DNA from: a virus
Taxonomy: Duplodnaviria; Caudoviricetes
IMG/VR virus record: IMGVR_UViG_3300029998_000597
Reading direction: 5' to 3' (one strand)
Length of the DNA stretch: 64,000 nucleotides
In this document: piece by piece, positions 11,002-13,076 of the stretch
Layout of the letters: each line of letters begins with the position of its first letter
How positions within the stretch are numbered: position 1 is the first letter of the stretch
The notes under the pieces: generated by a model
Seen by the model: the letters and a program-made list of their open reading frames with translations, nothing else
Database searches by the model: none
What the model was told of the DNA's origin: nothing
Position numbers and translations under genes: made by a program

Positions 11002-11484
11002 ATGAAACAACCTATTAATAACAATACAGGTATTAAACCTAAAAAAAAGAAAGAGGTTAAAGAATATAAATGTGGCTATGGAACATCTAAGCTTGAAATA
11101 TATTTTAAAGAAAATTTTTTAGATAAATTGGAAATTGAATATGAATATCAAAAGGAATTCAAATCATTAAAACGTGTTTGGGATTTTTATTTACCTAAAT
11201 GCTTGATACTCATTGAAATAGATGGGGATTATTATCATAATAATCCTGAAACAAATAAAAAACCACCAAATAGAATGCAAAATAAAAATAAACGTTCTGA
11301 TGAAGCCAAAAATAGGTGGGCGGCTATAAATGGAATAGTTTTAATAAGAATATGGGAAAATGATATTCATAAAAAACCAGAAATGGTTATGGAGATGCTG
11401 CGAAAAAGAACTGGTGCCGAAAAAGAAAAACAAATTATTATTGAGAAAAAGAAAACTGGTGAATTTTACCATAATAAAACCTAA
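11002..11484 (+). CDS. Vsr/DUF559-like PD-(D/E)XK endonuclease
   Basis: EYQKEF...WDFYLP...LIEIDGDYYH...DEAKNRWAAINGIVLIRIWENDI matches the Vsr/DUF559 pattern. Confidence 0.8.
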   Translation: MKQPINNNTGIKPKKKKEVKEYKCGYGTSKLEIYFKENFLDKLEIEYEYQKEFKSLKRVWDFYLPKCLILIEIDGDYYHNNPETNKKPPNRMQNKNKRSDEAKNRWAAINGIVLIRIWENDIHKKPEMVMEMLRKRTGAEKEKQIIIEKKKTGEFYHNKT

Positions 11485-11543: not shown

Positions 11544-12692
11544 ATGATGACAAAAGAAGAAAAAATGCGTGAGTCCGAAAGTGAATTTTTAAATGAAGCT
11601 TTACGTGAGGCGATAGAAAAAAATAGCCAGGGTGTAAATGCGTTGGAAAAAATAACACCTAAAATATCAAACCAACAAAAACTGTCCCCAAAAATAGTTG
11701 AAGATTATATTGAAGATGATTATATACCAGAGGTTAGTAATTATGAAAATGAAGAATTTGAAGGTGAAGAATCATATGATGTGGCTTACGATAAAATTAA
11801 ATTACCAAGTAATGGATTAATCTATGGTAAAAACTTTAAAAATTCTAAGATAGCTGTTAGTTATTTAACTGGATCAGATGAAGATATTATATCTAATCCT
11901 GGTATTTATACGGAAACAATTAATGGTGAGAGTCAATTATTCGATGTTTTATTACGCCGAAAAATTTTAGATAAAAATATTAGGCCAGAGTTACTTTGTA
12001 ATGCTGATAGGGATGCTATAATTGTATGGCTTCGATCTACTAGTTATGGTAATTATCCAATTTCAACTGTTGATCCAGATACTGGTGAACGTTTTGATAC
12101 GGAAATTGATTTAAGTCAGATTAAACCAAAAGAATTTACTCTTACACCAAACGAAAATGGTTATTTCCAATTTGTGTTACCACAGTCAAATGATGTAATT
12201 GAATTTAGATTTCTGGTACATAAAGATGAACTTGATTATAATAAGTTATTACAAAAATCCAACAAAAAATTAAAAAAACACGCATTAAATAGTGCTAAGG
12301 ATTTATTAATTGAAATTATAGGTGAAGATACATCTATTGATAAATTATCAAAAACAAAATTAGATAACGCATTAAAACTTGTCGATGAATACGTTGGTTC
12401 TATAGAGGATACAGATGATTATTTAAATGCAAAGGGTATTACGTTTAGACTTGAAAAATCAGTTATTTCAATAAATGGTGAAAAAAATAGAAATTATATT
12501 CATAATTATATTAAAAACATACGTGTATATGATTCGTTGGCATTAAGAAGGTTTATAACAGATAATATACCTTCTTTGAATTATCAAATAACCATTACCC
12601 GACCTGAAACAACAAATTCGAGTCTTGGAGGTGGCTCTGAATTTACTACGTTTCTTACGCTCGACGAAACTATTTTTCTCAATTACAAGTGA
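11544..12692 (+). CDS. Baseplate hub/tail assembly chaperone (T4 gp26-like)
   Basis: IKLPSNG..Y...SYLTGSDEDII...LLCNADRDAIIVWLRSTSYG, LPQSNDVIEFRFL and IRVYDSLALRRFI. Lies between tube and tape measure. Confidence 0.75.
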   Translation: MMTKEEKMRESESEFLNEALREAIEKNSQGVNALEKITPKISNQQKLSPKIVEDYIEDDYIPEVSNYENEEFEGEESYDVAYDKIKLPSNGLIYGKNFKNSKIAVSYLTGSDEDIISNPGIYTETINGESQLFDVLLRRKILDKNIRPELLCNADRDAIIVWLRSTSYGNYPISTVDPDTGERFDTEIDLSQIKPKEFTLTPNENGYFQFVLPQSNDVIEFRFLVHKDELDYNKLLQKSNKKLKKHALNSAKDLLIEIIGEDTSIDKLSKTKLDNALKLVDEYVGSIEDTDDYLNAKGITFRLEKSVISINGEKNRNYIHNYIKNIRVYDSLALRRFITDNIPSLNYQITITRPETTNSSLGGGSEFTTFLTLDETIFLNYK

Positions 12693-12876
12693 TTTTAAAG
12701 GAAAATTATGGGATGAGTTTTGGGGGTGTCAGGCATATATTGGTCTTGATATGCCTTTAATAAAAAGTATGCCAGTTTATGAACGTAAATACCAAATAGC
12801 AAGGCATAATGATAAAACAAAAACAGATGCTGAGGAACGAGAATCCGCAATAAGAAATAGGAAGAATAAAAAATAA
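12670..12876 (+). CDS. gp51-like chaperone C-terminal segment, likely reached by frameshift from the gp26-like ORF
   Basis: IKSMPVYERKYQI resembles the T4-like gp51 motif (ENMIPWERDIY). The frame overlaps the 3' end of the previous ORF and has no A-rich ATG context. Confidence 0.6.
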   Translation, partial: LFFSITSDFKGKLWDEFWGCQAYIGLDMPLIKSMPVYERKYQIARHNDKTKTDAEERESAIRNRKNKK

Positions 12877-12915
12877 TAAAACGGTAGGACTAATTAAACT
12901 GTTCTACCGTTTTAT
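12876..12915. terminator. Bidirectional terminator between convergent genes
   Basis: Stem ataaaacggtaggac / gttctaccgttttat with a 10-nt loop. Confidence 0.8.
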
Positions 12916-12917
12916 CG

Positions 12918-13076
12918 TTATGCTATCCACGCAAATAGGAAGAATATCCCAACTATTATAGCTATTCCAATAATTCTAGCAAAAAACCAAAGTAAAGTAA
13001 CACCCCACCAATCATTTGAATCGTAAATTTCCTGTGTTCCCTTGACTGGCTCGTGTATCCAATATCTCTTTTCCAT
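12918..13076 (-). CDS. Small single-TM membrane protein, 52 aa, not in the ORF track
   Basis: Manual translation MEKRYWIHEPVKGTQEIYDSNDWWGVTLLWFFARIIGIAIIVGIFFLFAWIA*. Has its own promoter and terminator. Confidence 0.7.
   Translation of the reverse strand: MEKRYWIHEPVKGTQEIYDSNDWWGVTLLWFFARIIGIAIIVGIFFLFAWIA

Follow-up and report, generated by a model that had tools for sequence, protein, structure and literature searches.

Two Overlapping Reading Frames in the Tail Gene Region

We examined a window of 64,000 nucleotides (nt), by which we mean the whole stretch of DNA that was analysed, from the IMG/VR virus record IMGVR_UViG_3300029998_000597 (Caudoviricetes). The source is a large uncultured phage and the window has a GC (guanine plus cytosine) content of 28%. 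Between a tail tube gene and a tape-measure-like gene lie two overlapping open reading frames (ORFs), the arrangement of the lambda G/GT pair (Table 1). The first, ORF1, ends ACT ATT TTT CTC AAT TAC AAG TGA (12669-12692). The second, ORF2, lies in the +1 frame, which is open over 94 codons (12592-12876), reads ...LFFSITSDFKGKLWDEFWGC...MPVYERKYQIARHN... and encodes the peptide ...LFFSITSDFKGKLWDEFWGCQAYIGLDMPLIKSMPVYERKYQIARHN...; the part that would be read after the shift overlaps ORF1 up to 12692. Because 28% GC favours stops, an open stretch of this kind should be rare by chance, as a rough estimate and not a computed value. A preliminary description of this DNA had proposed a +1 or -2 programmed frameshift that fuses a gp26-like to a gp51-like tail chaperone; its sequence, coordinates and candidate starts were as described, and its sum of 378 and 65 residues, 443, is correct. 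We consider it very likely that a programmed frameshift of some form operates here and yields a fusion of 443 amino acids (aa).

Table 1: Positions, in window coordinates, of the overlapping reading frames, the two candidate shift sites and the flanking features.
Feature	Position	Strand	Match or basis
Tail tube gene, gp19-like, 162 aa	10394..10882	+	PF06841, phrog_4542/45
ORF1, short product, 382 aa, TGA stop 12690-12692	11544..12692	+	PF12322, phrog_150
Site A, TTT CTT (F370-L371), likeliest +1 shift site	12651..12656	+	
+1-frame stretch that would be read after the shift, 73 codons, TAA stop 12874-76	12655..12876	+	
Site B, TTT CTC (F378-L379), less likely alternative	12675..12680	+	
Hairpin, 10-bp stem AAAACGGTAG/CTACCGTTTT, 16-nt loop	12878..12913	+	Read from sequence
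Tape-measure-like gene, 828 aa	13214..15700	+	Position, size, phrog_23178

To judge from its family matches, ORF1 is a baseplate-hub or tail assembly chaperone of the gp26/gp51 family (PF12322, T4_baseplate). The match of ORF1 itself is weak and partial, covering residues 128-280 at 26.5 bits with a cut-off of 24.5, and the window's own record scored 24.6 bits. Forty-two of 47 relatives matched the same family, with a best E-value of 1.9e-9, and the phrog_150 match carries the annotation 'baseplate hub'. Direct comparison of ORF1 with gp26 and gp51 of phage T4 by BLAST or hhalign was not significant. Similarity in sequence or fold to chaperones of the gpG/gpT type was not seen, with no Pfam or PHROGs chaperone family matching either ORF. 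Only one PF12322 gene was found in the examined part of the window's own record.

The stop of ORF1 is kept within 0-4 residues in all of the 120 homologues compared (35-100% identity), which share the tail ...SLGGGSxxTFLxLDxxIFLNI[AST]; the conserved tail of the 382-aa short form is LTLDETIFLNYK. In the AF2 model of ORF1 (pLDDT, predicted local distance difference test, of 80.7) the final confident strand, residues 366-370, stops exactly at F370, and the residues beyond are of low confidence.

The ORF2 peptide is 59-99% identical in five called proteins and is recognisable in all related loci examined. The stretch read after the proposed shift would consist of a linker, LRSTKLFFSITS, and a conserved domain that is modelled by AF2 as three helices (pLDDT 91.4). 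Its core, aligned across all groups of relatives, is [ST]x[DE]Y..L.DE[IL]...[LV].K...[FY]S..D[IL]..MP...R[KR]Y.I. A profile search of 1.84 billion proteins returned 637 clusters at 50% identity, nearly all of them small ORFs, while no Pfam or PHROGs family matched ORF2 and its peptides found no match among phage records by tblastn. Foldseek searches with the ORF1 and ORF2 models gave nothing at E<=0.001 in the PDB and weak rows only in BFVD; these include 'Gp51 [P-HM1]' and 'Baseplate protein [KPV15]', which were used as a lead only, and two proteins that carry a tail assembly annotation (E about 4). A complex prediction for the tube protein with the ORF2 domain returned no answer (score 0.00), which speaks neither for nor against an interaction.

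Conservation of the +1 Frame in Related Phages

We collected 165 related loci from IMG/VR and metagenomes. In every readable locus but one (about 150 distinct) a conserved ORF2 overlaps the end of ORF1 and the offset is always +1. The one aberrant locus, L045, lacks the motif, and the +2 frame at the related loci is short and not conserved. The window-like group (G1) comprises 85 distinct sequences in which ORF1 ends ...TFLxLDxxIFLNIA. In a distant group (G2) of about 40 distinct sequences ORF1 ends ...GFGVEFFRPFYGL, encoded by GAR TTT TTT CGN CCT TTC.

This layout is shared by five cultured phages. The site reads TTT CTT TGG in Flavobacterium phage immuto (vB_FspM_immuto), TTT TTT TGG in Microcystis phage Mel-JY01 and in Rhodothermus phage RM378, and TTC TTT CGT in Bacillus phage HSE3 (vB_BceM-HSE3) and in Streptococcus phage GXN1. 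Their records annotate a truncated small ORF at this place, or nothing, and in the literature searched we saw no frameshift described for the gp26 family. A two-product frameshift in this family is very probably common to hundreds of relatives of T4 gp26, and it was absent from the annotations and papers found. The preliminary description had also named what would speak against its proposal, including a conserved independent start for ORF2, a varying frame offset or a sequencing indel; among the relatives there is no shared ORF2 start, the offset is constant, and no indel appears across four further sequencing runs.

ORF2 Resembles the C-Terminal Tail of T4 gp51

The hub assembly chaperones gp26 (208 aa) and gp51 (249 aa) of T4 (PMC3004832) both match PF12322 over the whole profile. 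T4 gp26 is PF12322 alone, whereas gp51 consists of PF12322 (residues 1-201) and a 48-residue tail. T4 gp26 ends ...KEFFELL, directly past the conserved FF; its gene ends ...GAG TTC TTT GAG TTA CTA TAA, and the +1 frame there closes after 12 codons. The cyanophage P-HM1 has, downstream of gp26, a 53-aa 'gp51' and next to it a long gene annotated 'peptidase' (626 aa), which by its position and size may be the tape-measure equivalent. The 53-aa protein matches residues 211-249 of T4 gp51 with a BLASTP E-value of 7e-7.

When the ORF2 profile was aligned to a gp51-tail profile built from 22 cyanophage tails and the T4 tail, hhalign gave a probability of 76% and an E-value of 2.2e-5 over 61 columns. 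The homology is apparent only with this profile, as neither the single ORF2 sequence nor the ORF2 profile matched the single T4 gp51 sequence significantly. On this profile comparison, ORF2 is the counterpart of the gp51 tail (about 45 aa) and not of the whole of gp51. The label "gp51-like" given earlier to the second ORF thus holds for the C-terminal tail of T4 gp51 and for the 53-aa cyanophage gp51, but not for the entire protein. The predicted long form ends in a gp51-type tail, so that T4 has the same short and long pair, with a gp51 tail homologous to ORF2; in T4, however, the pair comes from two diverged, divergently transcribed paralogous genes, and no +1 ORF follows gene 26.

In the cyanophages the 3' end of gp26 is overlapped by the small ORF, whose ATG is not conserved and is often absent. 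In 63 distinct loci this ORF follows an in-phase T_TTT_TTC/A heptamer and is in the -1 frame. A -1 frameshift that has gone unannotated is likely in cultured T4-like cyanophages, judging from the heptamer and the missing starts. These phages have the same gene pair as the window but the opposite direction of the proposed shift, -1 there and +1 here.

The end of gp26 in the cyanophage loci (L172-L251) reads NNT TTT TTC/A GNA TAG in the 63 distinct loci (L171:4364-4558 is an example). A GCCCTC...GAGGGC hairpin follows the heptamer in P-HM1.

Probable Site of the Shift and Proposed Mechanism

In G1 there are two UUU_C sites 24 nt apart, site A (12651-54) and site B (12675-78), and the predicted long product has 443 aa from either. 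Site A is invariant: all 85 window-like loci have TTT followed by CTN. Over these loci as a whole, 63% of the Phe codons are TTT and 53% of the Leu codons are CTN. In 17 loci the +1 frame does not open until 5 nt before site A, and in no locus does it open later. As a reference for the +1 stops we took the number obtained by resampling synonymous codons according to the codon usage of each locus. Between A and B (12654-12675) none of the 85 loci has a +1 stop (38.4 expected); for the window alone, resampling gives such a stop with a probability of 0.96. Over the eight codons that precede A, 23 of the 85 loci have a +1 stop (35.7 expected), and further upstream 37 do (41.8 expected). At L371, CTA or CTG is found only where the next codon begins with C or T, so that no +1 stop is possible. 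Since TTT CTN is invariant at site A and the avoidance of stops begins exactly there, we place the shift at 12651-54, which is the probable site on these comparisons.

The preliminary description had put the slip at TTT 12675, which is probably wrong by 24 nt, as both the Phe codon and the next codon vary there. It had suggested aligning homologous loci for conservation of the frame offset and of the TTT-C run; the offset proved always to be +1, but the run is not kept at 12675 and is invariant instead at 12651. The UUU-C type of slip site and the 443-aa product that it predicted are supported, as is the lambda G/GT logic of a conserved +1 shift near the 3' end of a gp26-like gene between tube and tape measure.

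According to this proposal, ORF1 and ORF2 would be one recoded gene, from which a +1 frameshift makes two proteins with their N-terminal 370 residues in common. Most ribosomes would stay in frame 0 and end at TGA 12690, giving the 382-aa short form. In a fraction of ribosomes the P-site Phe-tRNA on UUU 12651-53 would re-pair with UUC 12652-54; the next codon would then be UUA 12655-57 (the commonest codon in the window genes), and reading in the +1 frame would continue to TAA 12874. The resulting long form would consist of residues 1-370, the linker and the three-helix domain. The tape measure or the hub would be held by the body that both forms have in common, and a further tail component would be recruited by the domain added in the rarer long form. 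Ribosomal shifting itself, its efficiency, the exact site and the binding partners are what we infer. From its position and its homology to T4 gp26/gp51, the pair should act like lambda gpG/gpGT.

What the +1 groups share is a P-site UUU, or in a few cases CUU, with C or U as the next base, which makes re-pairing one base forward possible. Site A in the window has UUU followed by C, and the distant groups have TTT CGN, TTT CTT T or TTT TTT T. In G2, CGN is rare (among the Arg codons, AGA accounts for 76%, CGC for 1.2% and CGG for 0.4%), and an in-frame TTT-CGN occurs about once per locus, at the site itself. The window encodes no tRNA.

A GGG Gly codon stands four codons before the site in 36 of 39 distinct G2 loci (L022-L082), where GGG is only 6% of the Gly codons. 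It yields a conserved GGGGU 10-12 nt upstream of the P-site TTT, with an 8-nt spacing that does not fit a Shine-Dalgarno stimulator of the prfB type.

Points against a Shift at Site A, and Alternative Explanations

Several observations weigh against a +1 shift at site A. The loci are mutually related, and the counts given above overstate the number of independent observations. The A-site codon of the window, CUU, is not rare (10.4 per 1000 codons, 13% of Leu), so that a rare, slow codon at this place is found only in the distant group. No conserved RNA stimulator was found downstream of the site among the 85 relatives: the RNA 12655-12760 of the window has a minimum free energy of -25.3 kcal/mol and a z-score of -3.06 relative to shuffled sequences, but in the 85 relatives the same region has a mean z of +0.2 and no consensus structure. 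At site B the sequence ATT TTT CTC of the window permits perfect re-pairing in both the +1 and the -2 direction. Nearly all window-like loci have some NTG in the open +1 stretch, and 59 of 85 have a GTG 17 nt before site A; the window itself has GTG 12631 and TTG 12625 and, taken alone, is compatible with separate initiation.

The same frameshift could take place at site B, where UUU 12675-77 would slip +1 to UUC or -2 to UUU 12673-75 and give products of 378+65 or 378+66 aa. Such a placement agrees with F378 being invariant in the 47-sequence protein alignment, with a spacing from the +1-frame FF to the D-Y/F motif equal to that of the distant group, and with the low frequency of the following codon: CTC encodes 1.8% of Leu here, less than any other Leu codon, and TTT-CTC is found once in 16,769 codons. 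CTC 12678 was considered as a hungry codon and rejected: before AAT, each of TTA, CTA, TTG and CTG would give a +1 stop, and avoidance of such stops accounts for the use of the rare CTC here. The Phe codon at B varies between TTT and TTC among the relatives and is followed by CTC, CTT, TTC, TTT, TGG, ATC, ACT or GGT. About half of the 85 relatives have TTC, from which +1 re-pairing lands on TCC, TCA or TCG, and in others NTA TTT makes -2 re-pairing fail, so that neither direction fits all loci. A slip at B also leaves unexplained why stops are absent between A and B and why TTT CTN is invariant at A. We regard site B as unlikely. As to direction, the +1 half of the "+1/-2" shift first proposed stands; a -2 slip fits site B in some loci and not in others, and is incompatible with the upstream site A.

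An improbable explanation is that ORF2 is a separate small gene and that no fusion is made. Translation of ORF2 would then start independently, at GTG 12631, TTG 12625 or a near-cognate codon, or ribosomes would reinitiate on it in a manner coupled to the termination of ORF1. Gene callers do predict an 81-aa ORF that begins at GTG 12631, both in the window and in close relatives, and in Bacillus phage HSE3 an ATG just past the ORF1 stop is the annotated start. However, the candidate starts in G1 (in the window these include ATG 12751) are scattered and none is shared, and locus L119 has none at all. GTG 12631 sits inside GGAGGTG and is left with no spacer to a ribosome-binding site, and in 17 loci a +1 stop separates the GTG position from site A. 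The +1 frame of G2 is open from just 5 nt before the P-site (second) TTT, and in at least 10 distinct loci the first ATG, GTG or TTG, if there is one, comes only far into the conserved part of ORF2 or beyond it. The called starts among the 637 clusters lie at many different profile positions, which is what arbitrary start calls would look like. The invariable +1 offset also speaks against a separate start or reinitiation. On this computational evidence ORF2 resembles the second ORF of G/GT pairs, which has no start of its own and is entered by a shift.

In-frame fusions of the two parts also occur in nature. The 289-aa protein P0259 matches both profiles, that of ORF1 over residues 4-200 (E 9.6e-21) and that of ORF2 over residues 228-286 (E 2.5e-9). 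Its gene has a syntenic position, after sheath and tube genes and beside a 265-aa short paralogue that is 35% identical. A second database protein, P0246, is also in frame through the region. We therefore take fusion by frameshift as the best reading, since the stop and the offset are conserved, starts are absent, ORF2 is homologous to the gp51 tail and in-frame fusions exist.

Locus L253:2187-3870, from an uncultured phage, holds adjacent PF12322-type paralogues, a short one of 265 aa and one of 289 aa with an in-frame ORF2-like domain. This pair appears to be a duplication solution like that of T4 gp26/gp51, reached independently.

It is very improbable that slippage of the RNA polymerase, rather than of the ribosome, makes a shifted mRNA. 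The distant groups do have T6-T7 runs, but the runs in the window are short, T3 at site A and T5 at site B, and many relatives have T3-T4. Known transcriptional slippage requires longer runs, T3 being too short, and here the RNA would have to lose one base or gain two. Least credible of all is an artefact or decay, that is, a sequencing indel or a frameshift mutation in a former single 443-aa gene, for which speak a few database proteins that are in frame here (P0246 and P0259): sequencing error and recent decay are excluded because homologues share the stop, identical along with the offset in about 150 loci from many samples, and because contigs from four other runs match window positions 12551-12750 without an indel or any difference, and the frame-0 tail after the site is moreover conserved as protein.

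Comparison with Other Recoding Systems

The tail-chaperone frameshift of lambda gpG/gpGT is conserved in long-tailed phages (Levin 1993; Xu, Hendrix and Duda 2004; reviewed in PMC5009743). As in lambda, overlapping ORFs lie between tube and tape measure, the shift would occur a few codons before the first stop, the second ORF lacks a start of its own, and a short form would be accompanied by a rarer C-terminally extended one. The two differ in the shift, which is -1 at X_XXY_YYZ in lambda and would be +1 at UUU_C in the window, where no in-phase heptamer for a -1 slip was found. They differ also in the first protein, of about 130 aa for gpG-like proteins but of 382 aa and the PF12322 family here.

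A parallel to the re-pairing is found in influenza A, where PA-X is made by a +1 shift at UCC_UUU_CGU that was shown by mass spectrometry (PMC3498833). In both cases the P-site Phe-tRNA would move from UUU to UUC, and the distant phage group has the same UUU_CGN motif with a rare CGN. PA-X, however, belongs to a eukaryotic system, and the next codon in the window is CUU, which is not rare.

In bacteria, the E. coli prfB gene (RF2) shifts +1 at CUU_UGA with an upstream Shine-Dalgarno sequence. It likewise has a bacterial +1 P-site slip, and some relatives of the window (immuto) have CTT_T. The A-site codon in the window is instead CTT and not a stop, and no Shine-Dalgarno-like element lies 3 nt upstream, the nearest GGAGG (12627-31) being 19 nt upstream of TTT 12651.

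A precedent for +1 in a myovirus tail chaperone gene is the Halorubrum myovirus HSTV-2, whose shift is 'very likely +1' (PMC5009743), although both the protein family and the host domain are unrelated.

Neighbouring Genes

Tube homologues (50-88% identity) lie directly upstream of ORF1 in related loci, in most of which the chaperone gene follows the tube gene. In the window an ORF of 160 aa (11002-11484, plus strand) stands between the two. It resembles a homing or HNH/Vsr-like endonuclease (phrog_559 and phrog_9084; weak DUF559) and looks like a mobile insertion, because the tube gene adjoins ORF1 in most relatives.

The order of tube gene, PF12322 gene, small ORF and tape measure is found also in immuto and HSE3, in which the genes syntenic to the tape-measure-like gene are annotated as tape measure. 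Microcystis phage Mel-JY01 has the same gene order, and its downstream gene is unannotated. The sole family match of the tape-measure-like protein, to phrog_23178, covers residues 599-691 and is annotated 'peptidase', an annotation also carried by the syntenic gene of cyanophage P-HM1.

The hairpin directly 3' of the ORF2 stop resembles a terminator; a consensus hairpin scan missed it, the loop limit of the scan being 8. A 52-aa hydrophobic ORF on the minus strand (12918-13076), between ORF2 and the tape-measure-like gene, shares this hairpin. All 23 public runs that contain DNA of window positions 12300-13000 are labelled 'peat metagenome', and many of the window-like contigs carry human-gut or JGI sample names.

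Significance for the gp26/gp51 Family

The tail-chaperone frameshift is among the most conserved phage recoding events, and the G-T frameshift was described in a 2016 recoding review as conserved 'except T4' (PMC5009743). The locus studied here and its relatives suggest that the same short and long logic exists within the gp26/gp51 family in the T4 lineage. We tentatively propose, as a possibility that we would not yet rate as even odds, that this family (PF12322) is the T4-lineage equivalent of the lambda G/GT chaperones, with one ancestral pair of a short and a long form made by three interchangeable means. The three would be a +1 shift at UUU_C in the window and hundreds of large phages, a -1 shift at U_UUU_UUC in the cyanophages, and gene duplication in T4 and in the phage of locus L253. 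As part of the same tentative proposal, the clade of the window would shift +1 at UUU_CUN by means of a stimulator not yet described in bacteria, as the site has neither a rare codon nor a stop codon, no Shine-Dalgarno sequence close by and no RNA structure that is conserved. This stimulator may be the nascent peptide, whose sequence ...SLGGGSxxTF is conserved.

If this is true, the textbook 'T4 exception' would be removed. The 'hub assembly chaperones' gp26 and gp51 have been poorly understood for decades. On the frameshift reading, the long product is mis-annotated or omitted in hundreds of genomes, including the five cultured phages named above and the T4-like cyanophages. The family would include a bacterial-virus counterpart of the UUU_CGN +1 site of influenza PA-X, and it would offer a natural comparison of +1 frameshifting, -1 frameshifting and duplication as solutions to one problem.

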